Source: Candidatus Zixiibacteriota bacterium (GTDB lineage Bacteria > Zixibacteria > MSB-5A5 > RBG-16-43-9). From it: 64,000 nt of DNA. How positions within the stretch are numbered: the stretch's first letter is position 1; every line of letters begins with the position of its first letter. Location of the stretch: NCBI GenBank assembly GCA_022865345.1, contig JALHSU010000194.1, positions 9,249-73,248 on the forward strand. The letters run 5' to 3'. Shown here piece after piece: positions 1,849 to 63,491 of the stretch. Under the pieces are notes generated by a model, which made no database searches, was not told the DNA's origin, and saw only the letters and a list, made by a program, of their open reading frames with translations. Made by a program: the position numbers and the translations under genes.

Positions 1849-3648
1849 TTACAGAGTCCTTCCCAGGGTTATAGTTATGAAATTGGACAAATCCTCTTTG
1901 CTTCTGCTTTCTTTCTGTGCCCGAACAGTCCAGACAAACCTGATGAAATTTGCCTGATCAGTTACATAATCTATGGAAAAGTTTAACAGATTTCTATAAA
2001 ATTTATAGGTGAAAACTTTTTTCTCCTTCCCAGTTGGCAGGTCCAGAAACAGGCTATAGTCCTTTCTGATCTCATAATTGTATCCAGAGGAGAAGATCAC
2101 GCTTTTGAAAAGTTTATGCCTGACCAAAAGTCCAAAACCCTGGGTTTTCCTTTCCCAGGAGGGTCTTCTCACCCATTCATCCTTCCACAAAAGCTGTCCA
2201 AAATCCTCAAACCGATAAAGGTAACTCAGCTCCCCTTCCAGATTTTCGCTGGCGGAGTAGTTCAAGCGGCTAAAAGTTGAAGCCCTTCTAAAAATCTTGT
2301 TCTGGTTACTCTCGGTCGCCTTCTGAAAATCATAGGAGATATAATTAGCCTGAATCTGGTATTCCTGATAAAACCTCACTTTCTGGCTTATCCTCCAGCT
2401 CAGGCCAGGCGAAAGATTATAGGTCTCGTTGTAATTGTTATTGGCTGATTTCTGGCTGGAAATATATATCTGGTGGAAGTTCTTGAAACCGGTTTTGACT
2501 TTCAAACTGAATGACCGGCTGAAGATGTGCAGGTATTCCACAGACAGTATTTTGGTAAGGACATCCCGGTCATTGAAAAAGGAACCTGGAGCGGTATAAA
2601 AGGAGGTCACGCCCATGGAAGCTGAAATAAAACCTGAGTCGGAATTGCTGAATCTTGCTGAAAACCTCCCTCCCAACTCCCCGCTTTTCATATCCTGATT
2701 TCTTTCGGATAATCCATAGTCTTCCTGCCCGGACATATATTTATAAAACCCTTCCAAGTTAGCCCTGCCGAAAAAAGTTCTGCTCAGGCTCAAAATGTAA
2801 TCTCTCGAGCTGAGGGAATTATCTCTGAGATAAAGAGGGTTGAACAGGGTATCCTCTTCAGAGACGTAGCGGTAAGTGTTCAGTTGAAAGTTATAACCGA
2901 ATTTGAGCAGGAAACCGGAGAATAAACCTCTGGATGTATCCAGTCTTAAGACTCTCTCGGTTTTTCTTTGAGTGCTCGTCTGAGAACCTTCACTGGAGAA
3001 AAAACTTTTTTTTGACCATCCTTCCTGGTACTCTAAGTTCATGGAATCTTTATCTGCTAAGTTTCTATTGAATCGAATTCTCAGGTTCCTCTCCTGACTG
3101 GGTATCCTTTCCAATTTTACCAGGCCTTGATTCAAATCCACAAAAAACTCGGCTTTTTCCCAGGAGAAGGGTCCCAGCCCCAGGGCAAGAGAATAGTTCA
3201 GTCCGGATTCTCCTCCTTTTGTCGCCTCTGATTTCCGGTTGATGGAGCTTATCCCCACATTCTGAGAAACTTTCAGCTTCTGCCAGAGATTGGTCTCGGC
3301 AGTTAAAAGATAATCCTGAGACGTGACCTTCCTTGATCCCACGGAACTTAATTTATGCTGAAGGAGGACGCCGGCTTTGAAGTCCCTTTTTAAAAGATAA
3401 TCGAATTTCACCCTCAAACCCCCATCCTCCTGCCAGCGGTCCTGGATTTCCTGTTTTATCAGAAGTGAATTCAAAGAAAACAAAAATTCCCAGTAGAAAT
3501 TCTTATCCTGATTGTAGATATATTCCAGCCGGTTGTTCCAGTTGTAAGTCTGGTTATTCCGGGAGAAATCCAGGTGCAGGTTCGAGGCATATGCGGGCTG
3601 AATCAGACAAATAATGAGGACGAGAAAACTTAAGTAAACCTTTTTCAT
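1849..3648 (-). CDS. hypothetical secreted protein, probably an outer-membrane beta-barrel
   Basis: 599 aa. N-terminal signal peptide MKKVYLSFLVLIICLIQPAYA. The sequence is rich in Y/S/N/R with alternating-hydrophobic beta-strand-like segments. It overlaps ksgA by 4 bp. Confidence 0.5.
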   Translation of the reverse strand: MKKVYLSFLVLIICLIQPAYASNLHLDFSRNNQTYNWNNRLEYIYNQDKNFYWEFLFSLNSLLIKQEIQDRWQEDGGLRVKFDYLLKRDFKAGVLLQHKLSSVGSRKVTSQDYLLTAETNLWQKLKVSQNVGISSINRKSEATKGGESGLNYSLALGLGPFSWEKAEFFVDLNQGLVKLERIPSQERNLRIRFNRNLADKDSMNLEYQEGWSKKSFFSSEGSQTSTQRKTERVLRLDTSRGLFSGFLLKFGYNFQLNTYRYVSEEDTLFNPLYLRDNSLSSRDYILSLSRTFFGRANLEGFYKYMSGQEDYGLSERNQDMKSGELGGRFSARFSNSDSGFISASMGVTSFYTAPGSFFNDRDVLTKILSVEYLHIFSRSFSLKVKTGFKNFHQIYISSQKSANNNYNETYNLSPGLSWRISQKVRFYQEYQIQANYISYDFQKATESNQNKIFRRASTFSRLNYSASENLEGELSYLYRFEDFGQLLWKDEWVRRPSWERKTQGFGLLVRHKLFKSVIFSSGYNYEIRKDYSLFLDLPTGKEKKVFTYKFYRNLLNFSIDYVTDQANFIRFVWTVRAQKESRSKEDLSNFITITLGRTL

Positions 3649-4478
3649 TTAATTGCTGAAATTATCTTAGCTAACTTCCCCAACTCTTTCAAGTTTAGAG
3701 TCTCACCCCTCTTTTGGGAATCTATTTCTGCATCCTTTAAGATAGTCTGAAGCTCGTCTTTATTCAAGTCCAAACTTTTACTCAAGCTATTCAAAAGGGT
3801 TTTCCTTCTCTGGGAGAAAACTGCTTTTACCAGATCGGTGAAGAAGGGAAACTCCACCTCCACTTTTGGTCTTAAAAGGAACCTGATTTTTATGACCGCC
3901 GAGTCAACTTTCGGAGGGGGAAAAAAGGAATTCGGTTTCAGGGTAAACAGAATTTCCGGATTGGAGAAAAGCTGAATCCCGATGGAAAGCGGGGACCAGT
4001 CAGGCGTGCCTGGTTTGGCACAGATACGTTTTGCCACCTCCTTCTGCACGGTCAAAATGGCTAAATCAATAAGTTCCCGGTTTCGAATAAGATACTCCAG
4101 AATCGGACTTGTTATCTGATAAGGGATATTCCCGATTACCTTTAATCTTCCTTCTTTTTGTGCAATCTTCTTAATGTCAAATTTTAAAATATCTTGATTT
4201 ATAATTTCAAAGTTTTCTTTGTCTTTGAATTTTTCTTTCAGATATAAGCAGAGGTTCCTATCCAGCTCCACTCCATAAACTCTCTTAGCCTTTTCTAAGA
4301 GAAAGTGGGTCAATGCGCCTTTACCGGGTCCAATCTCCAGGACTTTCTCATCTGGTTTTAACTCTAAGTAATCAACAATTCTTTTTGCGGCTTTGAGATT
4401 GACCAGAAAATTCTGGCTGAATCTTTTTCTGGGAAAGATTCTGGAGTCCTTTTGTCTGGGTAAAGAAGAGAATTTCAT
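3645..4478 (-). CDS. rsmA: 16S rRNA (adenine1518/1519-N6)-dimethyltransferase RsmA/KsgA
   Basis: FSQNFLVN...VLEIGPGKGALT...GNIPYQITSPIL motifs of the KsgA/Erm methyltransferase family. Ends with a TGA stop. Confidence 0.9.
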   Translation of the reverse strand: MKFSSLPRQKDSRIFPRKRFSQNFLVNLKAAKRIVDYLELKPDEKVLEIGPGKGALTHFLLEKAKRVYGVELDRNLCLYLKEKFKDKENFEIINQDILKFDIKKIAQKEGRLKVIGNIPYQITSPILEYLIRNRELIDLAILTVQKEVAKRICAKPGTPDWSPLSIGIQLFSNPEILFTLKPNSFFPPPKVDSAVIKIRFLLRPKVEVEFPFFTDLVKAVFSQRRKTLLNSLSKSLDLNKDELQTILKDAEIDSQKRGETLNLKELGKLAKIISAIK

Positions 4479-5236
4479 TCTAATCTGAAGAGTTTTTTTG
4501 TATTCTGAGTGAAAATCTCATCTATCTCTTTAAAAGTATGTGAGTCAGAAAGCTGGACGACTTTTTCTATGACCAGCCTGACCAATTTAGGCTCATTTCT
4601 TTTACCCCGCATTGGCTCAGGAGTTAAATAAGGGCAATCAGTCTCAGTTAAAATCGAGCTTAGGGGGATTTTCTTCACCAGCTCGGCTGACCTGGAATTT
4701 TTATAGGTCAAGGTGCCGTTAAAGGAAAGACAAAAACCAAGATTAAGAGCATCTTTAGCCTCATTCTCATCCCCTGAGAAACAATGAAGAACCCCTTTCA
4801 ACCCTGCGGCGTCAGCTCTGAGAATATCTAGAGCTTTTTTATAGGCATTTCTGATATGGACGACGATCGGGAGTTTTAATTTCCTGGCCAAATCTATCTG
4901 CTCCTTAAAAGCCTTTATCTGCACATTCTCAGGAGAAAGATTTCTGTAAAAATCCAGCCCGATTTCACCTATTGCCACAACTTTTGGATGAGAAGCTATT
5001 TTTTCCAACTCTTTGAAAGCCTCACCGGTCAATTTAGACGCATCATGCGGATGGAACCCCACAGTGGCATAAATATTTTTGTACTTTTCAGCTAACCTTA
5101 TCGACTTTTCAGACGATTCTAAATCCACCCCGATATTGACAATCGACTCTAATCCGGAGGAAAAAGCATCTTCAATAACCTTATCTCTATCCTTATCATA
5201 CTGCGAAAAATCCAAGTGAGCATGGGTATCGATCAT
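4475..5236 (-). CDS. tatD: TatD-family metal-dependent hydrolase/DNase
   Basis: MIDTHAHLDF...GEIGLDFYRN...HCFSG motifs typical of TatD. Confidence 0.85.
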   Translation of the reverse strand: MIDTHAHLDFSQYDKDRDKVIEDAFSSGLESIVNIGVDLESSEKSIRLAEKYKNIYATVGFHPHDASKLTGEAFKELEKIASHPKVVAIGEIGLDFYRNLSPENVQIKAFKEQIDLARKLKLPIVVHIRNAYKKALDILRADAAGLKGVLHCFSGDENEAKDALNLGFCLSFNGTLTYKNSRSAELVKKIPLSSILTETDCPYLTPEPMRGKRNEPKLVRLVIEKVVQLSDSHTFKEIDEIFTQNTKKLFRLE

Positions 5237-5319
5237 AATATTCCCTTACAATTAAAGAATCATCCTTCTCTTTAATAATAAGCCTCCTAAAATTGAATGT
5301 CAATTCCTTTTAGTTGACT

Positions 5320-5437
5320 TGTATCACCCTCAAACAAGTTTGAGGGTGATACCCTATACGGGGCTGGGAGCCCCGCCTACGAGAGAAGGGATCTCTTTTT
5401 CCTTTCGTAGGTCGGGCACCCTTGCCCGACTTTTTTG
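5320..5437. repeat. array of four GC-rich hairpins, ending in a hairpin plus T-run (gtcgggcacccttgcccgac tttttt)
   Basis: tcaccctcaaac/gtttgagggtga (12-bp stem), ggggct-ggg-agcccc, cctacga...tcgtagg and gtcgggca/tgcccgac, all within an AT-rich intergenic stretch. Confidence 0.6.
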
Positions 5438-5445
5438 GAAAAAAA

Positions 5446-5489
5446 TGGAAGGCTAAAAAGTCTCAAGACCTTGAGAACTTCCGCTACAT
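5446..5489. repeat. short repeat family G, copy 1 (atggaaggc...tccgctacat), carrying an inserted gtctcaagaccttgagac hairpin
   Basis: Shares aaaaatggaaggct...tccgctacat with 43480-43506 and 61323-61350. The tctcaagaccttgag hairpin recurs at 54853. Confidence 0.5.
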
Positions 5490-5526
5490 AATAACGATCT
5501 TAAACCTGCCTAACCCTGTCATCAAG

Positions 5527-5558
5527 ACAAAAAAAGAGATGTTCTGCAGAACATCTCT
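5527..5558 (-). terminator. rho-independent terminator of metG
   Basis: Perfect hairpin agagatgttctg/cagaacatctct followed on the minus strand by TTTTTTTG, about 25 nt after the metG stop. Confidence 0.7.
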
Positions 5559-5583
5559 TTTAAAATCTCGATTTACCTGGGTC

Positions 5584-7542
5584 TTAACTTATCTTCGCCC
5601 CGGGTTTAACCTCTTTATCCACTGTTAATATGGTCAGATTTTCCCCGTCCTGAGCGGCAAGGAGCATCCCTTTTGATTCTATCCCTTTTATGCGAGCAGG
5701 TTTTAAATTGGCAAGAAGGATAATCTTCTTTCCGACCAGCTCCTCTGGCTTATAATATTCCGCAATTCCGGCGACTATTTCTCGATTTTCGTCCTCGAAT
5801 TCAACTTCAAGCTTTAAAAGCTTTTTTGCCCCTTCGACTTTTTCTGCTCCTATGACTTGAGCCACCCTTATATCCATTTTAGCGAAATCCTCAATAGTTA
5901 TTTCCATCTTCTCTTCTTTTGCAATTGAAACTTCAGATTTTTCTTTTGAGACCTCAGCCGGTTTTGCCTCTTTAAACCGAGGAAACAAGGGAACGATCTC
6001 CCGGATTTTCGTTCCGGGTTTTAAATAACCCCAGTCTTTTTCTCTTTCTAAATTCGGGATTATCTCATTTTGTGCTAACCCTAAAATCTCTCTTAACTTC
6101 TGACATTTCTCCGGCAGAGCAGGATAGAAAAGAAGACTGATAATCCTCAAGGTTTCTGCTGAGGCATAAAGAACCGTTCCCAATCGGGTTTTATCCTTTT
6201 CCTTGGCTAAATTCCAGGGAGCGGTCTTGTCCACATAGCGGTTGGTGAAGCGGACTAACTTCAGGACCTCATCAAGAGCCTGGTTGAGATTCAGCTCCTC
6301 GATTGAGTCAAAAACCACCTCGACTGTCTTCAGGGCTGAATTTTGCAGCTCCTTTTCATCCACAGAGTAATCCGAAGGCTTTGGAATCTCTCCGCGAAAA
6401 TGCTCCTTGATCAGCTTCAAAACCCGGCTGGCTAAATTGCCAAAATCGTTTGCTAAATCAGAATTATATTTCTCCTCTAATCTTTTCTCCTGAATGTCTC
6501 CATCCTGTCCGAAGGGAAAATGAGTCAAAAGGAGATAGCGGGTAGCATCACTGCCATACCTTTCTATCAGATAATAAGGGTCGATCACGTTGCCTAGAGA
6601 CTTCCCCATTTTTTGACCATTCACCGTGAAAAAACCGTGGATGAAAAGTATGTCTGGTGTTTTTTCTCCGAGCGCAATCAGCATCGCAGGCCAGTAGATG
6701 TTGTGGAATTTCAAAATGTCTTTACCTAAAAGATGTATAACTTTCCCCTCGGTCCACCATTTCTTGAATTCATCAGGATTATCCCCGTAACCGATAGCTG
6801 AAATATAATTTGGCAGAGCATCCACCCAGACATAGGTCTTCTGAGTAGTGTCGAAGGGCAAAGTTATCCCCCAGGTAACCTTTTCTCTCGAAATCGAAAA
6901 ATCCTCTAACTCCTGCTTGAAAAGCCCCAGGGTCTCTTTTTTCTTCTCCTCTGGCAAAATCCTTATTTTATCTTCTGTGATTAGTTTTTCGACCTGTGAC
7001 AGGTATGAGGAGAGCCTGAAAAAGTAGTTTTTCTCAGTTACCTTTTGCGGAGGTTTCAGATGATTGGGGCAAAGTCCGTTTACTAAATCTTTTTCGGTGA
7101 TGAATTTCTCGCAGCCCACGCAGTATAATCCAGTATATTCTCCAGGGTAAACTATCTTTTGACCTTTTTCATCTTTTGCTTGGTAAAGTATGTCCAGAAG
7201 TTTTTCAACTGCCTGAACGTGCCTTTCATCAGTGGTCCGCACGAAATAATCGAAGGATATATTCAGCTTTTCCCAGACCTCCTTGAAGCGTTGGCTATTT
7301 CTATCGCAAAACTCCTGCGGAGAGATTCCCGCCTGCTCGGCTGCCTCTGCTACCTTGCTGCCGTGCTCATCTGTTCCGGTCAAAAAGAAGGTCTCGTCCC
7401 CTTTGATGCGATGAAATCTGGTAAGGATATCAACCGCAACAGTGGGATAGGCGTGTCCGATATGCGGTTTATCGTTCACATAATATATGGGAGTGGTAAT
7501 AAAATATCTTCCTTTTTTGATCTGAGGCTTTAAGCCAGCCAA
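5584..7542 (-). CDS. metG: methionine--tRNA ligase with C-terminal tRNA-binding (EMAP/Trbp111-like) domain
   Basis: HIGH-type motif (PHIGHAY), KMSKS-type motif (KMGKSLGN) and a Zn-knuckle CxxC...CPNH. The C-terminal domain is of the ...GAEKVEGAKKLLKLEVEF... type. Confidence 0.92.
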   Translation of the reverse strand: MAGLKPQIKKGRYFITTPIYYVNDKPHIGHAYPTVAVDILTRFHRIKGDETFFLTGTDEHGSKVAEAAEQAGISPQEFCDRNSQRFKEVWEKLNISFDYFVRTTDERHVQAVEKLLDILYQAKDEKGQKIVYPGEYTGLYCVGCEKFITEKDLVNGLCPNHLKPPQKVTEKNYFFRLSSYLSQVEKLITEDKIRILPEEKKKETLGLFKQELEDFSISREKVTWGITLPFDTTQKTYVWVDALPNYISAIGYGDNPDEFKKWWTEGKVIHLLGKDILKFHNIYWPAMLIALGEKTPDILFIHGFFTVNGQKMGKSLGNVIDPYYLIERYGSDATRYLLLTHFPFGQDGDIQEKRLEEKYNSDLANDFGNLASRVLKLIKEHFRGEIPKPSDYSVDEKELQNSALKTVEVVFDSIEELNLNQALDEVLKLVRFTNRYVDKTAPWNLAKEKDKTRLGTVLYASAETLRIISLLFYPALPEKCQKLREILGLAQNEIIPNLEREKDWGYLKPGTKIREIVPLFPRFKEAKPAEVSKEKSEVSIAKEEKMEITIEDFAKMDIRVAQVIGAEKVEGAKKLLKLEVEFEDENREIVAGIAEYYKPEELVGKKIILLANLKPARIKGIESKGMLLAAQDGENLTILTVDKEVKPGAKIS

Positions 7543-26437: not shown

Positions 26438-27535
26438 TTATTTATGAGTGAAGTTTTTATAAAAGGGCGGCTTGGTGACTTTTGCCAGATAGTCTTTACC
26501 ACGGATGTTTATATTCAGGTCTGCCCCTACCTCAGAGGATTGAATGTCGACATACCCTAAACCAATCCCCTTTTCCAGAGAGGGTGAAAAGGTGCCGGAT
26601 GTCACTTCACCTATCTTTTTTCTGTTTTTTTCTATCTGGTAATGCTGTCTGGGAAAGGCTCTATCAGAAAGCTCAAAGGCAACCAGTTTTCTTTTTAACC
26701 CTTCCTTCTGTAACTTTATGGTCGGCTCTTTTCCAACAAAATCCCCCTTGTCCAGTTTAACTATCCAGCCCAGACCTGCCTCCAGAGGATTTGTGGTTTG
26801 GTCAATATCGTTCCCATACAGCATATATTTCATCTCCAGTCTCAAGGAATCCCTGGCACCCAAACCAATCGGCTCAATTCCAAATTCCTCTCCAGCTTGC
26901 ATAATCGAATCCCAGAAATGTTCGCCGTATTCATTCGGCATATAAAGCTCAAAACCATCCTCACCTGTATAACCTGTTCGGGAGAAAAGTATTTCTTTGC
27001 CTGCAACCTTTCCTCTGGCTGCCCAGTAATATTTGATCTTTTTCAGATCAACATCAGTTAACTTTGACATCACTTTCTCTGCGACTGGTCCCTGAATAGC
27101 TAAAAGCGCAGTCTGGTCACTTATATTTTCCAATTTCACGTCCCCGAACAAATGCTCTTTTAGCCAGTTGAAATCCTTTTCAATATTGGATGCATTCACG
27201 ACCAGGAAGAAACGGTCAGGCAATCTGTAGACTAAAAGGTCATCCACGATCCCGCCATCCTCATAGCACATACAGGAATATTGGACCTGATAATCAGATA
27301 ATTTGGACACATCGTTTGTGGTTGTCTTTTGCAGAAAAGCGAGTGCATCCTTACCCTTAACTTCGAACTCCCCCATATGGGTGATGTCAAAAAGCCCCAC
27401 AGTTGACCTGACCCTGCGGTGCTCCTCCATTATCCCTTTAAACTGGATCGGCATCCAGTAACCGGCAAACTCCACTATTTTGGCATTGTTTTTAAGATGG
27501 ATCTGGTAAAACGGGGTCTTTTTTGGCTCAGACAT
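26438..27535 (-). CDS. gcvT: glycine cleavage system aminomethyltransferase T
   Basis: ...YWMPIQFKGIMEEHRRVRSTVGLFDITHMGEFEV... Start taken at MSEPKK; the track ORF begins 22 codons earlier. Confidence 0.88.
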   Translation of the reverse strand: MSEPKKTPFYQIHLKNNAKIVEFAGYWMPIQFKGIMEEHRRVRSTVGLFDITHMGEFEVKGKDALAFLQKTTTNDVSKLSDYQVQYSCMCYEDGGIVDDLLVYRLPDRFFLVVNASNIEKDFNWLKEHLFGDVKLENISDQTALLAIQGPVAEKVMSKLTDVDLKKIKYYWAARGKVAGKEILFSRTGYTGEDGFELYMPNEYGEHFWDSIMQAGEEFGIEPIGLGARDSLRLEMKYMLYGNDIDQTTNPLEAGLGWIVKLDKGDFVGKEPTIKLQKEGLKRKLVAFELSDRAFPRQHYQIEKNRKKIGEVTSGTFSPSLEKGIGLGYVDIQSSEVGADLNINIRGKDYLAKVTKPPFYKNFTHK

Positions 27536-27703
27536 ATAGAATCCTTTGAAAGATTTTAAAATATACTTGTGTTCTGTCAGGAGTAGCTCCTGACAGAACA
27601 CAAAAACTCAAGCGGATAATATAAATAAAAAAAATTTAAAGTGGAATTTTTTTTGAGAATTTTTTACAGCGTTGTCACTCCAGTGACAACGTAATGACAT
27701 TTT

Positions 27704-38790: not shown

Positions 38791-38878
38791 AAACTCATCC
38801 CCTTACCCCTTCTCTTAACAAGAGAAGGGGAACATTAGTCCCTCTCTTTTTTTAAGAGAGGGATTCAGGGTGAGCTCG
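38791..38878. repeat. Correia-like element P, copy 2 (aaactcatcccc ... agggtgagctcg)
   Basis: Hairpin A is ccccttctctt-aac-aagagaagggg (11-bp stem) and hairpin B is ccctctctt-ttttt-aagagaggg (9-bp stem). The TIRs carry 1-2 mismatches. It lies upstream of hemW. Confidence 0.7.
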
Positions 38879-39540: not shown

Positions 39541-39651
39541 CGAACTCATCCCCTGGCCCCTTCTCCCCGCCTTTGGCGGGATCTTCGACTTACAAAGAGA
39601 AGGGGGACACAAGTCCCTCTCTTTACAAGAGAGGGATTTAGGGTGAGTTCA
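39541..39651. repeat. Correia-like element P, copy 3
   Basis: TIRs cgaactcatcccc ... agggtgagttc. Hairpin B is ccctctctt-tac-aagagaggg. The cccgcc-tttg-gcggg hairpin sits at a different position from copy 1. It lies in the 5' leader of the lipoprotein gene. Confidence 0.7.
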
Positions 39652-42563: not shown

Positions 42564-43409
42564 TTAAACTTTCTTTCCCATCTTCAAAACAGTTATCATC
42601 TGGGTATGGATCTTACCATTTGTGGCTAAGATATTTTTCTGGTAGATGCTGAATCTTTTACCTGAGAAGTCAGTAACTTTTCCACCTGCCTCTTTGACCA
42701 TTAAACTTCCAGCCGCTGTGTCCCAGGGAGAAAGCTTCAGCTCCCAGAACCCGTCAAAGATTCCTTTTGCCAGATAACATAGGTCCAGAGCCGCAGCCCC
42801 AGCCCTTCTTATTGCTTGAGCACGCAGTGCAAAATTTTTGAAATGGTCCAGATTATTAATCTGGCTTTCTCTTATATCGTAAGGAAACCCGGTTGCTAAA
42901 AGACTCTTAGAAAGGTCCCTTTGGGCTGAGATTTGGATTCTCTTTCCATTCAAAAAGACACCTTTATTCTTCTCAGCCACAAACAGCTCATCCAGAACCG
43001 GATTATAAACCACTCCCAAAATTATTTCTCCCTCTTTTTCTAAGGCAATCGAGATACAATATACGGGAAACCCATGAGCGTAATTGGTCGTGCCATCCAG
43101 AGGGTCGATTATCCACTTATAATCTGATTCTTTTTCGTATCCTTTGCTCTCTTCAGTCAGGATATTATGTTCAGGAAAATTTTTTCGGATGATTTCAATA
43201 ATAGTGTCCTCAGAGAGCCGGTCCGCCCCTGTAACCAGATTCACCACCCCTTTATACCCAACCCTTTTAACCCTGCCTCTGCACTTCTGAACGATCTCCC
43301 CACCTTTAAGAGCCGCCTGGATTGCTACTTTTCTGAATTGGCTTACGTGTTTCACCTTTACTCCTTCTCCTGTGGGAGCTAATATAATTTTTGGGCAAGC
43401 TTTATGCAA
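42564..43409 (-). CDS. suhB: inositol monophosphatase family protein (SuhB-like)
   Basis: ...[17 protein letters not shown]... and ...WDTAAG... are IMPase-family motifs. Confidence 0.8.
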
Positions 43410-43437
43410 GGAAATGTAGGGGCGAACTTTGATGGTA

Positions 43438-43459
43438 GAACAGGCATTCCTGCCTGTTC
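43438..43459. repeat. hairpin family H, copy 1 (gaacagGCattccTGCctgttc)
   Basis: Homologous to 47728-47750 (aacagACattccTGTctgtt) with a compensatory double change in the stem. A third relative is at 63375-63395. Confidence 0.6.
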
Positions 43460-43479: not shown

Positions 43480-43506
43480 ATGGAAGGCTGAAGCCTTTCT
43501 CTACAA
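43480..43506. repeat. repeat family G, copy 2 (atggaaggctgaagcctttctctaca)
   Basis: Hairpin ggaaggc-tgaa-gcctt(t)c, followed by ctctaca. Confidence 0.5.
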
Positions 43507-43589
43507 TAGATTGTAGGAGCAATTCATGAATTGCCCCTACAGGATACTAAGAATTTTGGCTAATACTTATGTAAAGCTGAAACCTTTTC

Positions 43590-46500
43590 TCAGCAAGGTG
43601 GTGGTCCGCCTTTAAAAAGATAGTTAACTAAATACACTACATCGGAAACAGTTACTTTCCCATCGCAATTAGCGTCTCCGGACTGAATTGGAATAGGGGT
43701 TTGACCCCCTTTGAACAGATAATTTACCAGATAAACCGCATCCGATACAGTTACTTTGTGATCACCGTTAGCATCACCGCACGTGTACTCATATTGATAA
43801 TCATATTCATACACACCCATATCCACTCTGCAACCTCTTATTCTGGGTTTAAAGTCAAAATCAAAATCGGGTAAACCTGAAATATATTTGTCTCCTGCAT
43901 TAACGCAAGGGGAGTTTTCCTGCAAGTGGTAATCAGTGTCCGGATTGACAAACATAGGATTCCTGATAATGTTGTGATAACTGTCGCAAGGGATTCCATT
44001 GACATTAGTTCCCCAGGTGGTATCTCCAATTTCGGGAGGAGGATATCCCTCAGCATCAAAATTACCATCAGCATTGTTCCAAACATCATTATGTGAAATA
44101 CCATAGTAAGAAGAACAGTTCATGAAACTCATCCCGTGACCATCGTTGTTAACGATAATGTTGTTGCTAACATTATGAGTACAAACATTCCATATAAGCA
44201 TTCCATCAGATCCATTGTTTGAGATGGTGTTATTAACAATTCTAGGGCTACCGCCGCTTTCTATGCATATTCCACCACCACCGTCATCGCAACTATTTAG
44301 AATAATCAAGTTATTCACAATTAAGGGGCTTGATGTTCCCCTGCAAGACATACCACCTCCCAGTTCCCACATCCCTCCCGGCTCGCTAGGGATGTGATTG
44401 TTAATAATCAAATTGTTCATTATTGTAGGTGATGAAGAAAAGCAATAAATGCCTCCACCATGGCGTTGCCACCTTCCCAGATAAAAGTTAGTTCCTGTGC
44501 CGCCAGTGATGGTGAATCCTATTAAAATAGATATAGAATCCTCGCCTGAAACAAAAGTTACCACACTGCCTGAATCGGGATTAATAGGTTCACTTCCATC
44601 AATTATAGTTGCTTCAATAGTGGCAGAGTTATGGTCATAGATAAAATGGCTTGCTACAGTTATAGCTTTGCCCCGGAAATTTATATTCTCATAATAAGTT
44701 CCAGGCGCAACCAAAACCGTATCTCCATTCGAAGCAGAATCAATACCTTCTTGAATTGTTTGAAAATCAACCGGAATCCGGATAACATGCGGGCTAGGGG
44801 TAAATGGCTCCAACCGGAAAAGCTTCCCTTCACCAGGACCCAGATAGACTGTAAACATGTCACCTATTCCATTTACCATACCAACTTTCGTGTTGAGGTA
44901 CATATCTCTGATATAGAATGGACCACCTGCTTTGCTTAAAAAGACATCGTAATTTGCTCCTTCGGTTGCCAAGCATTCACGGTTAACCAGCATAAAGTAG
45001 CTGGTATCGCCGGTTTGATTCTCAAAGAATCCGACCTGCACCCAATGGGGTTCATGCCCAGGTGACCTGATGCTGTCGAGGTAACTGCCACCGCAGCCAT
45101 GGAGGTCATTGTTGTTGTAGGAACTGTCTAAGCAGGCATCAATCCAGTCGAGGCTCCGCAGCGTTGTGCCGAGGGAATCAAGCCAGAAATTAATCTGGAC
45201 AACCTCAGTTAGCAAAGTCTCTGGTTGGCTCGAATAAGGATTTGGACCGGGGTAGGTCTCAATAGGCACCCAATCCTGCACATCTTCGTTCCACCATAGC
45301 AATCCACTTTGCCAAGCCGGATTTTGGGGGGTCCATTGTGGGTGACTTGAGTACCGAAAGTACTCCATTCCTTTGGCACCATAAGCCAAGGATAAGTAAA
45401 CGGTGGTCCTTAGCTCGCTGTTGTGCGAATATCTCCACCAATAGGGGTCCCTGAGAGTTTGGGCCACATACCACCATTCGATATTATGTTCGCGTGCGGC
45501 TTCAGCCGCTTGTCGGATGCGCCAGGTAAACAGATTTAGCAGGTACTGAAGAGATTCTGGAACAACCCAGGTAGCTATAGGGTAATCATCATAACATATT
45601 TCATGTGGTTGTACCTCATCCGCAAACTTTTTAGGATGATGCCAGGCTGCATCTCCTGTTGCTTGAATTCCCGGAACATAGTTGAGTGAATCAAGTAGAT
45701 GGCTTATCTCTCTGTTGGTTTTGTAATGCACATAGGCGGGTTCGTCACGCAAGTACCATCGAAATAAAGATGTTCCATGATATTGATTTTCCAACGTTGA
45801 TACTTGTGCAATAATCCTATCTTGATAGGTTGGACTGTGATTCATTAAGGTATCGTAAATGCAATCATAAACTTCGACATAATCTATGAAGAGATCAGTA
45901 TTCTTAAACCAGTGAACTCTGTAATCGACCGAATCATTTCCATAAGGGATTTGGTTGTGGAATGACAGTTCAAATATCCGGTATTGCCCCAGAGTGAAAT
46001 CCCCGTAGAGAAGTAGGGAATCCGCCACTACGCTATCTCTTACCGCGTTCATATAATGAACCTCAATACGTGCAACTGAGTCCAAAGGTTGAGCACCAGG
46101 TGTTACAGGAACCTTAAGGTTAAAGCGGGCATAGTATATTAGTTCATAATAACATCCCCACCAGCTATTTGAGCAGAGCATCTCTCTGCTATAATCAACG
46201 ATGCAACATGTGTCACGGATTCTGTCACAGTCGGGTTGTTCATGCCAGAGTCCCCACAATACCAACCCACCATTATGGGTTACGCTGTCCTTAGATTCGA
46301 ACCATGCGTATCCGTTGCCAGCGTCTGGGTCTTGCACCTGATTGCCATATCCGTTGTGATCCAAACGAGTACTGAGAAAGCGGATTTGATCTCCTGGATA
46401 AGGTTGATAGTAATCTCTGAGATTATGTCTGTCGGCTTCATACTTACTGTACAGTCCATTTCCCGGCTGCAAGTAGATGTAGTCTATCAAGTTAAGAGTA

Positions 46501-46697
46501 TCGACCGAAGCTGAATCATAATCTGCATAAGTAAATCCCCAGGGAAGGGAATGAGCGCAATTAAAACCGTGACTTTTTGTTTTATCGAAATAGGGATAAG
46601 ACCTAAAATCTGGTGTGTGGAGAGGACCGTAGACACCACGATGAAAATTCGGTTCAAAGGCCACTACTGAGGTAAAGAAGAAACCGAGAAAGAGCAA
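43590..46697 (-). CDS. large secreted protein: N-terminal glycoside-hydrolase-like region, parallel beta-helix (PbH1) repeats, C-terminal type-I dockerin pair
   Basis: C-terminus GDANGDHKVTVSDAVYLVNYLF ... GDANCDGKVTVSDVVYLVNYLF has the two Ca-binding dockerin repeats. There are N-N-x-I-x-N-N beta-helix turns. The track start is a TTG. A probable true start, ATG 46739 with SD AGGAG, is separated from this frame by an in-frame TGA at codon 8. Confidence 0.7.
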   Translation of the reverse strand: MLFLGFFFTSVVAFEPNFHRGVYGPLHTPDFRSYPYFDKTKSHGFNCAHSLPWGFTYADYDSASVDTLNLIDYIYLQPGNGLYSKYEADRHNLRDYYQPYPGDQIRFLSTRLDHNGYGNQVQDPDAGNGYAWFESKDSVTHNGGLVLWGLWHEQPDCDRIRDTCCIVDYSREMLCSNSWWGCYYELIYYARFNLKVPVTPGAQPLDSVARIEVHYMNAVRDSVVADSLLLYGDFTLGQYRIFELSFHNQIPYGNDSVDYRVHWFKNTDLFIDYVEVYDCIYDTLMNHSPTYQDRIIAQVSTLENQYHGTSLFRWYLRDEPAYVHYKTNREISHLLDSLNYVPGIQATGDAAWHHPKKFADEVQPHEICYDDYPIATWVVPESLQYLLNLFTWRIRQAAEAAREHNIEWWYVAQTLRDPYWWRYSHNSELRTTVYLSLAYGAKGMEYFRYSSHPQWTPQNPAWQSGLLWWNEDVQDWVPIETYPGPNPYSSQPETLLTEVVQINFWLDSLGTTLRSLDWIDACLDSSYNNNDLHGCGGSYLDSIRSPGHEPHWVQVGFFENQTGDTSYFMLVNRECLATEGANYDVFLSKAGGPFYIRDMYLNTKVGMVNGIGDMFTVYLGPGEGKLFRLEPFTPSPHVIRIPVDFQTIQEGIDSASNGDTVLVAPGTYYENINFRGKAITVASHFIYDHNSATIEATIIDGSEPINPDSGSVVTFVSGEDSISILIGFTITGGTGTNFYLGRWQRHGGGIYCFSSSPTIMNNLIINNHIPSEPGGMWELGGGMSCRGTSSPLIVNNLIILNSCDDGGGGICIESGGSPRIVNNTISNNGSDGMLIWNVCTHNVSNNIIVNNDGHGMSFMNCSSYYGISHNDVWNNADGNFDAEGYPPPEIGDTTWGTNVNGIPCDSYHNIIRNPMFVNPDTDYHLQENSPCVNAGDKYISGLPDFDFDFKPRIRGCRVDMGVYEYDYQYEYTCGDANGDHKVTVSDAVYLVNYLFKGGQTPIPIQSGDANCDGKVTVSDVVYLVNYLFKGGPPPC

Positions 46698-47164: not shown

Positions 47165-47626
47165 ATGAAATTCATCTGCGATGACAATCTAGGGAAGTTA
47201 GCCAAATGGTTGAGAACCCTGGGGTATGACACCCTTTTCAGCCAGGAGATAGAGGACACCGAGTTAGTTTCAACGGCTTTAAAGGAAGAAAGGATAATCC
47301 TGAGCCGGGACCAGCAGCTTAAACGGTTCAAATCCGCAGAGAAGAATCTTTTCCTCCTCTCTTTGAACCAGCCCCTGGAGCAGTTGAAAGAAGTTCTGAA
47401 AAAGTTCAACCTTAAACCTGAGGAAAAAAATCATTTTACCCGCTGCATTATGTGCAATACCGTATTGGTTCCGGTTCCTAAAAAAGAAGTAGAGAATAAA
47501 GTCCCGCCCTTTGTCTTCAAGACCCAGGAGAAATTCTTTTATTGTTCTAAATGCAATAAGCTCTTTTGGGCAGGAACGCATGTAAAGAATTTGAAGAAGG
47601 AAATAAGCGAACAGGGTATGCTGTAG
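47165..47626 (+). CDS. Mut7-C (DUF82) PIN-like RNase domain protein with C-terminal zinc ribbon
   Basis: N-terminal MKFICDDNLGKLAKWLR...ILSRD matches Mut7-C. C-terminal CIMCN...CSKCNKLFW is a CxxC...CxxC ribbon. Confidence 0.7.
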   Translation: MKFICDDNLGKLAKWLRTLGYDTLFSQEIEDTELVSTALKEERIILSRDQQLKRFKSAEKNLFLLSLNQPLEQLKEVLKKFNLKPEEKNHFTRCIMCNTVLVPVPKKEVENKVPPFVFKTQEKFFYCSKCNKLFWAGTHVKNLKKEISEQGML

Positions 47627-47692: not shown

Positions 47693-47727
47693 GTCTCTTG
47701 TCTTGACCTACACTTTTGAGAATGGTA

Positions 47728-47750
47728 AAACAGACATTCCTGTCTGTTCC
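47728..47750. repeat. hairpin family H, copy 2 (aacagACattccTGTctgtt)
   Basis: See 43438-43459. Confidence 0.6.
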
Positions 47751-47778: not shown

Positions 47779-47864
47779 CGAACTCACCCTGAATCCCTCT
47801 CTTAGAAAGAGAGGGACTAAAGCTCCCCTTCTCTTCCTAAGAGAAGGGTCAGAGGATGAGTTCG
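47779..47864. repeat. Correia-like element P, copy 4 (inverted orientation)
   Basis: cgaactcaccctgaatccc ... ggatgagttcg. Hairpins are ccctctctt-aga-aagagaggg and ccccttctctt-cct-aagagaaggg. It lies between the convergent Mut7-C and GH57 genes. Confidence 0.7.
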
Positions 47865-47983
47865 AGCAAGAACTACTTTCCCCCCCATTCTCCTGTTGGG
47901 TCAGACAAAAATGTCTGACCCACCAATCACCCTCGCCTTACCCCTCCAGTCGAGGAAGGCAATTTGTCCGATGAATCGGGCGA

Positions 47984-50155
47984 CTATCCGAATGGATCCA
48001 TCCTAGACAGAATATCGATTTTTTTGATTATCCTTGCCTGCCAAACCTCTGCGGGATTTAACCTGATTTTCCAGTTCGGAAACAAGACCGTGCTCTGATA
48101 AGTTTTTTCAAAGCCGGATTCAGATAAGGAGACAGTATATAGGGGGAATTGCCAGATACTTGCGGGTTTATCCAGCTTCAGGTCTATCTGGAGACCCAAA
48201 GCTTCATCCCTTATGCCAAAATCCGTGATATTCTCATCTTCTGTCTTTAGATTGAGTTTTCTGTCTTTTTGCTCCAGGCCTTTGACGTAAAAAGTCTTCC
48301 TCCCGTCGTCCGATGATAGCATCCCGAAGTTAAACTCCATCCCAAACCATAACTCCACAACTTCTGAATGATTATTCCTCAATTCATAATTAATCTCAAG
48401 CTCTTTGCTATTACCTTTGAGGGTGATTCTTTTTGTCACACCGATACTTGCCCTCTCATCGTCCACCCACACAAAACCGTTCCGGGAAAGGATTAATTCA
48501 AGAGAACCTTCTTTTTTATTAATCTCATATTCATAAGGCTGATTGATAAAGTCCCCTTGTTCTGGATACTGACACCTGGCGAAATCATCTAAACTCGCAT
48601 TTTTTCCCAGGAAATGGTCGATAAAAGAACCTTTTCTGTACCAGTCATAGGTCAGAAGCTTTTCTAAGCCTTCCTCCTTGACTCCCAGCAGATCGTGAAT
48701 GCTGGCGAATTTTTCAGTCGGGTTGATCTCAGTATTTTTTATCTCGGAGATCTTTCGGTGATACCCTTCCTCGTGTCTGGACAGAATGTTCAAGAGATTA
48801 AAATCCTTAGGTTTGAAATCCAGCTCATACAAGGTTCCGCCAATAAAGGGTGAAAAGTACAAATTGAAAATTGGAGACTCAATTATGACTTCCTCTTTGC
48901 CATCCTTGTCGAAGTCGGTAACCTCATATTCTATCCAGTTCTCGTCTTGATGACACAGTTGATCAGCAAGCTTATCTGCTTTGATCAGATGCTCATAGAT
49001 CGGCTTCCTGAGATTAGAAAGGTATAATCCACCAAAAACCCCGTGCCAGTAAGGGTCATTGCACTGGCTTTTCCAGCACTCATCTCTGATCATGTTAATT
49101 TTATCTCTATCAACATCAGACAAATCCTCCAGCTCTTTGATCTTCTGACTTAAATAGAGCATCCGTTTGTGCATATGATTGGATTCTGGATATTTTGCCA
49201 GGAAATTCCTCCAGAACCCTCCCCGCACGAAAATACCGTATTTATCAAAAAGGTCTTGCTCTTTAAGGACCTTCTCGAAATCCTCAAACTCCTGAAAGGC
49301 TTTGGGCAGAAGCGCCCAGTGCATCATCTCGTAATATGACGCGGTGGGGAGATAGATTCTGCCTAAAGGGGATAGTTCCTTTAAAACCTGGCTGAAATGG
49401 ACCATCTCGATCCAGTCTGAATTCTCTTTTATCTTTTCGAAAAATCTCTCCAGCCACCTGTCCTCGTAACAGTGCTCATAAGTCATGGGCCAGATCCCGA
49501 ATTTCTCACCATCATCTGCATAGACTACCAGTTTATCCCCATCCTCTGTAGCCAGACTTTTGAGATAGTCGATGATCTCTTCTGGCTCTTTGAAAGGAAT
49601 ATAATATCTCAGCTTCTTGCTTATGGGAAATAGAGCCAGGGTAAAGCCTCCCTCCTCAGTTAAATAGTAACCCAAGAGTTTCTCATCCTCTAAACCAGAA
49701 TACTTGAAGTGTGAATCATCCAGGAGCGCAAAATCGACCCCGGCTTTGGCAAAAAATTTCGGCAGGTGAGGCTCCCAAACCCTTTCTGCCACCCACATCC
49801 CTGAGGGTTCGAAGTAGAAATTTTGCCGGATGAAAGAGCTCAGCTTTTCGATCTGACCGGTCTTATCCTCATCCGGGATAGAAGGAAAGATCGGCTCGTA
49901 ATATCCTCCGGTCAAAAGCTCTACCTGTCTGCTTTTCACCAGGATCTTTAGTTTTTCGATTAGTTCCGGATGATTTTTTAGAAACCAGTCGTAAAGTATT
50001 CCGCAGTTGTGTAAGGAGAGCTTGAAGAAGGGGTACTTCTCTAAAAGCCCCAAGAAGGGAGCATAACATCTCTGAAAGGCTTTCTCGAATATATGCTCAA
50101 AATTCCCGATCGGCTGGTGATTGTGAATCCCGAAGGCAAATTTTATTTTCTTCAA
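47984..50155 (-). CDS. glycoside hydrolase family 57 protein (4-alpha-glucanotransferase/alpha-amylase type)
   Basis: GH57 N-terminal signature ...FAFGIHNHQPIGNFEHIFEKA...HNCGILYDW... 723 aa. Confidence 0.75.
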   Translation of the reverse strand: MKKIKFAFGIHNHQPIGNFEHIFEKAFQRCYAPFLGLLEKYPFFKLSLHNCGILYDWFLKNHPELIEKLKILVKSRQVELLTGGYYEPIFPSIPDEDKTGQIEKLSSFIRQNFYFEPSGMWVAERVWEPHLPKFFAKAGVDFALLDDSHFKYSGLEDEKLLGYYLTEEGGFTLALFPISKKLRYYIPFKEPEEIIDYLKSLATEDGDKLVVYADDGEKFGIWPMTYEHCYEDRWLERFFEKIKENSDWIEMVHFSQVLKELSPLGRIYLPTASYYEMMHWALLPKAFQEFEDFEKVLKEQDLFDKYGIFVRGGFWRNFLAKYPESNHMHKRMLYLSQKIKELEDLSDVDRDKINMIRDECWKSQCNDPYWHGVFGGLYLSNLRKPIYEHLIKADKLADQLCHQDENWIEYEVTDFDKDGKEEVIIESPIFNLYFSPFIGGTLYELDFKPKDFNLLNILSRHEEGYHRKISEIKNTEINPTEKFASIHDLLGVKEEGLEKLLTYDWYRKGSFIDHFLGKNASLDDFARCQYPEQGDFINQPYEYEINKKEGSLELILSRNGFVWVDDERASIGVTKRITLKGNSKELEINYELRNNHSEVVELWFGMEFNFGMLSSDDGRKTFYVKGLEQKDRKLNLKTEDENITDFGIRDEALGLQIDLKLDKPASIWQFPLYTVSLSESGFEKTYQSTVLFPNWKIRLNPAEVWQARIIKKIDILSRMDPFG

Positions 50156-63075: not shown

Positions 63076-63491
63076 TCTTTATTCCCTCCTTTGGGGCAAG
63101 GCGAAAATCCCAATCTTTTGTAGGGACAGGGCTTGTCCCTGTCCGACTTCAATACCGATAAACTCCACCCACTCCTCACAGGGCGGAGTTAAACTCCGCC
63201 CCTACGCGGACTTGATTTCATAACCTCTGACAGAAACGTCGGACGCTACGGAATCTTTCCCCTCCCTTGATGGGAGGGGACAGGGGAGGGTGACCCCCTC
63301 TCCCTAACCCTCTCCCACCAGGGGAGAGGGGATTTTTATGCATCGTCACGGACGATGCACTCCATATCAATTATGAACAGACAGGATGCCTGTTCACCTA
63401 CATCTGATAAAAAAACTTCGGGGCTGGGAGAGAAAATTCCCAGCCCCGGGAGGGGAGCTGATGGGCAAAAGAGTTTCAGTCTTTATATCTA
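63076..63491. repeat. ~415-bp non-coding array of at least seven distinct GC-rich perfect hairpins
   Basis: ggacaggg/ccctgtcc; gggcggagtt/aactccgccc; cccctccc/gggagggg; ccctctcc.../ggggagaggg; tgcatcgtc/gacgatgca; gaacag/ctgttc (family H relative); ggggctggga/tcccagcccc. No ORF of 60 aa or more. Confidence 0.65.

Follow-up and report, generated by a model that had tools for sequence, protein, structure and literature searches.

A covarying hairpin family in a Candidatus Zixiibacteriota contig: very probably a GTAG-type REP read by a RAYT transposase

What keeps the two arms of a short intergenic hairpin complementary when its sequence changes? The question is posed by two homologous hairpins, referred to here as family H, that lie in a 64,000-nucleotide stretch of DNA from Candidatus Zixiibacteriota bacterium (GenBank assembly GCA_022865345.1, contig JALHSU010000194.1, positions 9,249 to 73,248; hereafter the window), and whose stems differ by a compensated double substitution. 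A preliminary description of this DNA proposed that H is either a small regulatory RNA motif or a protein-binding hairpin. Our analysis makes it very probable that H is a GTAG-type repetitive extragenic palindrome (REP), a non-autonomous selfish DNA recognised as folded single-stranded DNA (ssDNA) by an HUH/Y1 transposase, the REP-associated tyrosine transposase (RAYT, or TnpA_REP). What defines a REP is its 5' GT[AG]G foot, together with the occurrence of REPs on the flanks of RAYT genes (PMC2817692, PMC3733652, PMC6006769). For H, direct support comes from its anatomy, its stem covariation, a multi-copy, mostly intergenic and orientation-neutral distribution, its presence or absence among relatives, and both linkage to and co-variation with RAYT genes. 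The paired stem substitutions are real, yet they are normal for this class of repeat; what is unusual is that a nearly identical 20-nt hairpin turns up in genomes with the labels of more than a dozen bacterial phyla.

The hairpin family and its paired stem

Copy 1 (43435-43459, + strand), which reads GTAG-AACAGGCATTCCTGCCTGTT-C, is a canonical REP. Its palindrome at 43438-43459 (GAACAGGCATTCCTGCCTGTTC) forms a perfect 9-bp stem (GAACAGGCA/TGCCTGTTC) around a TTCC loop, with the G-C form at stem pair 7, and its GTAG foot (43435-43438) consists of the unpaired positions 43435-43437 and the first stem G. Folded as DNA it has an energy of -9.9 kcal/mol (z = -5.3), and it scores 39.9 bits (E = 4.9e-10) against R1, a covariance model of the family that is used throughout. 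Copy 2 (47725-47749, + strand; GTAA-AACAGACATTCCTGTCTGTT-C) has a degenerate foot. Its palindrome at 47729-47748 (AACAGACATTCCTGTCTGTT) has an 8-bp stem (AACAGACA/TGTCTGTT), the same TTCC loop and A-T at stem pair 7, folds at -6.8 kcal/mol and scores 32.5 bits; the outermost pair is broken because GTAA replaces GTAG. The sole difference between the two stems is G>A on one arm with the matching C>T on the other, exactly as the preliminary description had it.

That description also named a third relative at 63375-63395. Such a hairpin does exist, within an array at 63100-63460, but it is a decayed copy. Copy 3 (63375-63401 with its foot, - strand; GTAG-GT-GAACAGGC-ATCCT-GTCTGTTC) is inverted relative to copies 1 and 2, as judged by the loop, its foot is displaced by 2 nt, and its loop (ATCCT) is 1 nt shorter. 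The covarying position is an uncompensated intermediate, A.C on the + strand and G.T on the - strand, and the hairpin scores merely 10.2 bits (E about 1.3), with fold energies of -7.1 (- strand) and -5.4 kcal/mol (+ strand). The loop deletion (AGGAAT to AGGAT) has also occurred independently in the copy 1 orthologue of the related locus L129 (about 2600-2625; L numbers denote loci from other genomes), which suggests recurrent slippage in the loop. Only copy 1 carries the GT[AG]G foot of a REP in place; copy 2 has GTAA, and in copy 3 the foot is shifted.

The conserved unit begins 3 nt earlier than first described, at the GTAG foot, and a fourth relative had been missed. This sister REP of the same superfamily (47899-47923, - strand; GTGG-GTCAGACATTTTTGTCTGAC-C; stem GGTCAGACA/TGTCTGACC) has a loop mutated to TTTT, scores 31.8 bits (E = 1.8e-7) and shares the spacer of copy 2 in the opposite orientation; among the sister types of other genomes, its GGTCAGAC stem is the one met most often. 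The family therefore counts 4 members in the window. A more distant GTAG-headed REP (5407-5431, + strand; GTAG-GTCGGGCA-CCCT-TGCCCGAC) scores 19.3 bits (E = 0.0017).

The suggested pattern search was carried out in the window and in GTDB. AACAGRC-N4-10-GYCTGTT matches the window 3 times, against 0.01 expected from 100 shuffles, and the motif recurs in other genomes. With one genome per species and both covarying positions left free, the pattern AACAGNCAGGAATGNCTGTT matched at least 120 tiles from GTDB, where roughly 17 chance matches are expected by our own rough estimate. Short base-balanced palindromes are common, and the spacers of the window contain about 40 hairpins whose stems reach 7 bp or more, so that a chance resemblance of unrelated hairpins has to be considered; the excess of matches in both searches, together with R1 E-values of 5e-10 and 1e-7, leaves that explanation a negligible probability.

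The matched tiles come from at least 68 species-level assemblies, nearly all of them metagenome-assembled genomes (MAGs), which bear the labels Verrucomicrobiota, Planctomycetota, Lentisphaerae (Lentisphaerota), Ignavibacteria (Ignavibacteriota), Chloroflexota, Acidobacteriota, Spirochaetia (Spirochaetota), Caldisericota, Latescibacterota, Zixibacteria, Desantisbacteria and Hydrogenedentes, among others. Tile GC ranges from 0.31 to 0.73, and the tiles are therefore not misbinned contigs of one organism. Among the matches listed, single assemblies contribute up to at least 10 tiles, and 107 of 138 copies are intergenic. The flank consensus of these copies, g-AACAGRCAGGAATGYCTGTT-CTACC, reads GTAG-AACAG... 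on the other strand, which means that the foot belongs to the family.

Stem pair 7 switches between two paired states across these genomes. It is A-T in 85 and G-C in 44 of the 136 listed copies from other genomes, with 2 G.T and 5 others. When each assembly and pair type is counted once, the tally is 42 A-T, 29 G-C, 2 G.T and 1 A.C (Fisher p = 4e-17). The preliminary description had held that non-compensated copies at similar frequency would speak against its reading; the copies with neither A-T nor G-C number 7 of 136, and several of these resemble chance matches.

The constraint extends to a larger superfamily with a fixed apex and foot and a free but paired stem. A census anchored only on the loop and its closing pair (CATTCYTG) covered 944 kb and found 328 sites where chance would give 58; stem lengths are bimodally distributed, an unbroken run of 5 or more stem pairs is present at 224 sites, and in 126 of these paired hairpins GTAG stands at one fixed register. 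The outer stem takes the forms GAACAG, GGTCAG, GGACAG, GCTCAG, GCACGG, GGCCGG and others, and the 3' arm matches each. Covariation was measured in 57 distinct sequences chosen by foot and loop only. Paired cells make up 91.4% of this set (79.6% in shuffles), double-change cells number 58 (16 in shuffles), and the covariation score of 0.363 exceeds the 0.144 of shuffles, none of 500 of which reach it, and the maximum of 0.113 in slid-register controls. Compensatory changes occur at 6 of the 9 stem pairs, and pair 7 shows the R-Y switch on several outer-stem backgrounds (GAACAG, GGACAG, AAACAG and CACAG). Pairing is maintained in the H stem, generally and beyond the two window copies, which bears out the pairing constraint first read from two hairpins.

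The double substitution could nevertheless owe its form to a mutational mechanism, such as hairpin-templated correction or template switching, or to a single old event carried forward in two amplified sublineages. The substitution would then testify to selection less strongly than it seems to. This reading is compatible with REP identity, and we regard it as less likely than not. The A-T and G-C forms occur together in 7 of the 68 listed assemblies and in the window, as coexisting sublineages would, H copies within a genome share long identical flanks and hence were copied as blocks, G.T and A.C intermediates are rare (3 of 136 copies, and window copy 3), and the covariation cells counted are not events. 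Against this, the switch at pair 7 on several backgrounds implies several events, five other pairs covary too, and the near loss of cleavage caused by a stem mismatch in another RAYT (PMC8266576) represents a selective filter.

A RAYT partner and a proposed mechanism

RAYT genes near H emerged through a motif regular expression, from which two tiles were picked, and through tblastn. In L036, a 155-aa segment (4450-4914) matches the NCBIfam model NF047646 (REP-associated tyrosine transposase) with 88.1 bits (cutoff 80) and the Pfam domain Y1_Tnp with 36.9 bits (cutoff 23). The protein has 66 homologues of about 150 aa, and its HUH motif (H67-x-H69) and Y127 are conserved in 22 homologues. GTAG hairpins are arrayed to either side of the gene, with H copies at the ends of both arrays. 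Searches by tblastn with the L036 homologues added two close RAYTs that have H copies immediately beside them (L085 and L107) and weaker ones in L020 and L022. Four independent homologue loci (L124, L126, L127 and L128) share a layout of GGTAG-stem-ATTCYT-stem upstream and stem-ARGAAT-stem-CTACC downstream, and the upstream REP of L128 is H itself. A REPtron, a RAYT directly flanked by hairpins of the superfamily, is found in seven independent loci: L036, L085, L107, L124, L126, L127 and L128.

Most of 80 metagenomic RAYT relatives are flanked by inverted hairpins. The ATTCYT core lies beside 6 of the 9 relatives with at least 44% identity, 3 of the 33 with 38-43% and 0 of the 38 with 32-37%, and REPs with a CCCT loop, the type found at 5407-5431, flank more distant relatives of 32-40% identity. 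REP type thus co-varies with RAYT divergence. The cluster labels of the RAYT clade are only 'Planctomycetota bacterium' and 'bacterium'. In an all-against-all comparison of 2,113 crude open reading frames (ORFs) from 120 H-bearing tiles, no ORF family was generally enriched beside H, which is what would be expected if the enzyme is single-copy.

The REPtron of L036 (MAG 'bacterium B46_G16', Guaymas) occupies an unusual position. It lies complete and in frame inside a 1,643-aa Type ISP / IIG restriction-modification ORF (2365-7296) with HSDR_N, N6_Mtase and Type_ISP_C domains, to which it adds no stop codon, and a second REP pair lies at 2740-2810 inside the same ORF.

By analogy with characterised systems, the GTAG-bearing strand would fold into a hairpin that RAYT binds as ssDNA, cleaving and re-joining the DNA near it. 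The enzyme would be expected to read the unpaired GTAG foot, a fully paired stem some 8-9 bp long, and the loop together with the pairs that close it (C-A-TTCY-T-G), and to tolerate any outer stem sequence provided that the arms pair. Copies and sister families would then differ by compensated changes such as the G-C/A-T switch because the outer stem is free but must pair, and pairing would be kept since unpaired copies cease to be substrates. In the perfect-palindrome REP of Stenotrophomonas maltophilia, foot mutations at positions 3-4 abolish cleavage, a reversed loop abolishes binding, the complementary strand is inert, and a mid-stem mismatch nearly eliminates cleavage (PMC8266576). This pattern maps onto H, with its conserved foot, loop and closing pairs and its covarying outer stem. 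On the same analogy copy 1 would still be a competent substrate, and copies 2 (GTAA foot) and 3 (short loop, mismatch and displaced foot) would be dead relics. The idea of a protein-binding hairpin therefore came near the mark, with the difference that the best-supported partner is probably a RAYT/TnpA_REP HUH transposase and the hairpin would be bound as ssDNA.

RAYT proteins associated with H have diverged to about 50% identity and the hairpin core is identical, so the DNA substrate is more conserved than the enzyme. The identical 20-nt H sequence in at least 60 species-level genomes, almost all uncultured and with more than a dozen phylum labels, raises the possibility of one REP/RAYT lineage with a near-invariant apex and foot, which would rank among the most widely distributed REP families; we put this forward tentatively, with somewhat more doubt than belief.

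Several points weigh against reading H as a RAYT-mobilised REP. First, tblastn with the L036 homologues found no RAYT in the 64-kb window. Second, the window holds only 4 family members per 64 kb, and the canonical foot is present in 1 alone. Third, the two H copies that flank the RAYT of L085 (5286-5952) are in direct rather than inverted orientation and have GTAC feet. Fourth, relatives with as little as 88% LepA identity keep copy 1 at the orthologous site, where a conserved promoter-like element lies shortly downstream, and the copy may have been co-opted there for a local role. Fifth, copy counts are not independent events, and amplified sublineages inflate the A-T and G-C tallies. Finally, the S. 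maltophilia pair has been assayed biochemically, whereas the RAYT clade described here is known from sequence alone. As a separate observation, one of the L085 flanking copies has an uncompensated T.T at stem pair 7.

Regulatory readings and the surrounding spacers

Window genes lie nearly all on the - strand. Copy 1 occupies the spacer between a beta-helix/dockerin gene (43590-46697, - strand) and an inositol monophosphatase-LepA operon, and copy 2 a convergent spacer between a GH57 gene (47984-50155, - strand) and a Mut7-C gene (47165-47626, + strand). Two regulatory readings were considered. In the first, H acts as RNA, whether as a terminator, a 3'-end stabiliser or the small regulatory RNA motif of the preliminary description, and its covariation stems from selection on RNA folding. 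On the gene (-) strand copies 1 and 2 read CA-GGAA-UG, by our own reading a would-be GNRA-type tetraloop, and on the same strand the mismatches of copies 2 and 3 become G.U. E. coli REPs stabilise upstream mRNA, and H copies are fewer in divergent (10) than in convergent (22) spacers.

Most observations oppose a role as RNA. The GGAA strand runs with both neighbouring genes in 24 cases and against both in 28, and within the window, where the transcribed strand is the same, copy 3 points the opposite way from copies 1 and 2. After the copy 1 stem come TACCATCA (- strand) and AATATAAT (+ strand); neither strand has a T-run behind the H stem, and an intrinsic terminator scan called two neighbouring hairpins and not H. 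Rfam models gave no match at gathering score anywhere in the window. An RNA helix offers no function for the conserved GTAG foot, occupancy varies among relatives, and RAYT linkage would be left unexplained. We conclude that H is most probably not a regulatory RNA: its orientation is unbiased, no T-run follows it, its foot lies outside the helix and its occupancy is variable. An RNA-level element is improbable, and this part of the preliminary description is not supported. Any effects on neighbouring genes, such as stabilisation of transcript ends or insulation between the terminator and the promoter-like site, would be secondary. Stem covariation in repeats of this kind should not count as evidence of functional RNA.

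Occupancy was compared in three relatives, L129, L130 and L131, whose LepA proteins are 95%, 88% and 84% identical to that of the window. At the copy 1 site, L129 has an H that carries the 1-nt loop deletion, L130 has H and, 5 nt from it, a sister REP, and L131 has a different, CTAC-tailed hairpin and no H. In L129 and L131 the edges of the copy 2 spacer are conserved and other tagged hairpins are in place, and H is absent. This occupancy pattern is that of mobile repeats and is unlike that of a conserved regulatory site.

The second regulatory reading takes copy 1 as a double-stranded palindromic operator at which a dimeric transcription factor controls the inositol monophosphatase-LepA operon. 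On the gene strand, a promoter-like element, TTGCAT-N17-TATATT (43381-43409, - strand), follows copy 1 at a distance of 28 nt and precedes the inositol monophosphatase start codon (GTG) by about 26 nt; it is conserved in L129 to L131. It falls below the threshold of the consensus scan, which did not call it in this region, and is a reading by eye. In favour of an operator, the -35 part of this element lies 28 nt beyond copy 1, whose arms form a perfect 9-bp inverted repeat, and copy 1 is kept in L129 and L130. However, the convergent spacer of copy 2 offers no promoter that could be regulated, and the same sequence stands beside unrelated genes in at least 68 assemblies of many phyla, with no enriched neighbour family. 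Compensatory stem changes are moreover unexpected where both half-sites contact protein alike, the loop is asymmetric yet conserved, and the foot is one-sided. An operator is therefore very improbable, more so than an RNA element.

Other known repeats were considered and rejected. CRISPR repeats are ruled out by the lack of regular spacers and by the mixture of families within the arrays; integron attC sites by the housekeeping flanking genes and the shortness of the units; and a LexA-like GAAC...GTTC box by its wrong spacing and the multi-copy occurrence of H across phyla. A scan of IMG/VR viral contigs gave 10 matches (L132-L141), which form 3 groups of phage contigs, each with a single copy that lacks the GTAG foot. 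The phage hairpin is AACAGRCATTCCTGYCTGTT, extended in one group to GGCAAACAGG...CCTGTTGCC. These hairpins are probably unrelated and terminator-like, and the scan gave no evidence of a phage vector for H.

H is one component of spacers that are rich in short perfect hairpins of several families, many with a GTAG head or CTAC tail. The spacer of copy 1 also contains a 'double-foot' palindrome of another family (GTAG...CTAC; 43512-43541, - strand; TGTAGGGGCAATTCATGAATTGCTCCTACA) and a terminator-like hairpin (43484-43497, - strand; AAGGCTTCAGCCTT then CCATTTTTCT) located downstream of the beta-helix gene, between that gene and copy 1. The array at 63100-63460, between two - strand genes, holds at least 8 different perfect hairpins in an arrangement like that of bacterial interspersed mosaic elements (BIMEs), including several GTAG/CTAC-tagged hairpins, among them 63124-63144 and 63181-63201, and poly-purine/pyrimidine palindromes at 63258-63280 and 63308-63330. 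Two further abundant families, TCCCTCTCTT-N3-5-AAGAGAGGGA and CCCCTTCTCTT-N3-AAGAGAAGGGG, have no GTAG foot and are often adjacent to one another (38806-38863, 39614-39636, 30771-30795 and 47794-47848). The longest perfect stem in the window, 17 bp at 27567-27603 (TTGTGTTCTGTCAGGAG-tag-CTCCTGACAGAACACAA), overlaps the 5' end of the ORF at 26438-27601. The intergenic hairpin arrays of the window are best read as REP/BIME-like selfish DNA and not as a set of riboregulators.

The gene content around these spacers also varies. The beta-helix/dockerin gene (1,035 aa) is missing at the orthologous position in L129 and L131, in which the inositol monophosphatase gene comes immediately after Mut7-C, and it is a lineage-specific insertion bordered by REP-rich spacers. 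In the near-identical strain L002 (3090-4870), two extra ORFs of 155 aa and of 353 aa, the latter with DUF3644, lie between the LepA and signal peptidase genes and have no counterpart in the window. The window LepA is 100% identical to an NCBI protein from a candidate division Zixibacteria MAG, and the best named matches of the window are Zixibacteria. L131, L010 and L102 (CAZEDM / GCA_964511075.1) come from a MAG labelled 'Ignavibacteria', yet its LepA is 84% identical and its locus syntenic with the window; MAG taxonomic labels are thus in conflict for GCA_964511075.1.

Comparison with known REP systems

Among described systems, GTAG-type REPtrons, and in particular those of subclass 2.7 (Quentin et al. 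2018, PMC6006769), come closest to H: they too combine a 5' GT[AG]G foot with an uninterrupted palindrome of some 8-9 bp and a short loop of pyrimidines, their RAYT lies between inverted REPs, and their copies recur mostly outside genes, as those of H do in genomes other than that of the window. The RAYT motifs found here, DHVH, WQ and YIxxNP, agree with the subclass 2.7 signature of [ND]HVH, WQ and YI[LR][NQ]NP, an assignment by motif resemblance alone. The subclass 2.7 REP of Solibacter usitatus, GTGG-GGCAGCCA-TTCC-TGGCTGTC (PMC6006769 supplement), shares the CA-TTCC-TG apex and the architecture of H. The RAYTs described here are shorter, at about 150 aa against a subclass 2.7 median of 213 aa, and they differ in distribution: PVC, FCB, Chloroflexota, Acidobacteriota, Spirochaetota, Caldisericota and others, against the 'Cyanobacteria and few other phyla' given for subclass 2.7. 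A literature search that included the text and supplements of Di Nocera 2013 and the Quentin 2018 supplement did not find the xxCAGRC stem or the core strings. H thus appears to belong to a REP/RAYT system of known type, with a stem family that is apparently new to described REPs.

The REP of S. maltophilia (SMAG / REPSm) and its group 3 RAYT are alike in the perfect 8-bp palindrome, the GTAG foot and the short loop (PMC8266576), but differ in stem and loop sequences, in the RAYT (subclass 2.5, motif DH[LF]H), and in being confined to Xanthomonadaceae and pseudomonads. E. coli REPs and BIMEs with TnpA_REP (YafM), and the paired REPs termed REPINs of P. fluorescens, share with H the GTAG foot, alternating arrays and ssDNA recognition by an HUH Y1 enzyme, and inverted doublets in L130 and L038 resemble REPINs. 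Unlike H, E. coli REPs are imperfect palindromes in which the bulge is itself a recognition element. The sub-terminal hairpins of IS200/IS605 insertion sequences (IS) are likewise ssDNA hairpins read by a Y1 HUH transposase of the same superfamily; they are, however, the ends of an autonomous IS with its own tnpA, whereas H is dispersed alone and its RAYT is not multi-copy.

Within this class, the variation of family H serves as a natural mutational map of substrate recognition by a little-studied RAYT clade: foot, loop and closing pairs are fixed, and the outer stem is free but paired. REPIN-RAYT systems have been described as lineage-specific and vertically inherited, whereas the H core is common to many phyla. 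If the wide distribution proposed above is true, it would imply either an unusually strong and ancient substrate constraint or repeated transfer between phyla, in contrast to the prevailing view, and the occurrence of H over many uncultured phyla provides a way to ask whether REP-RAYT systems move horizontally.

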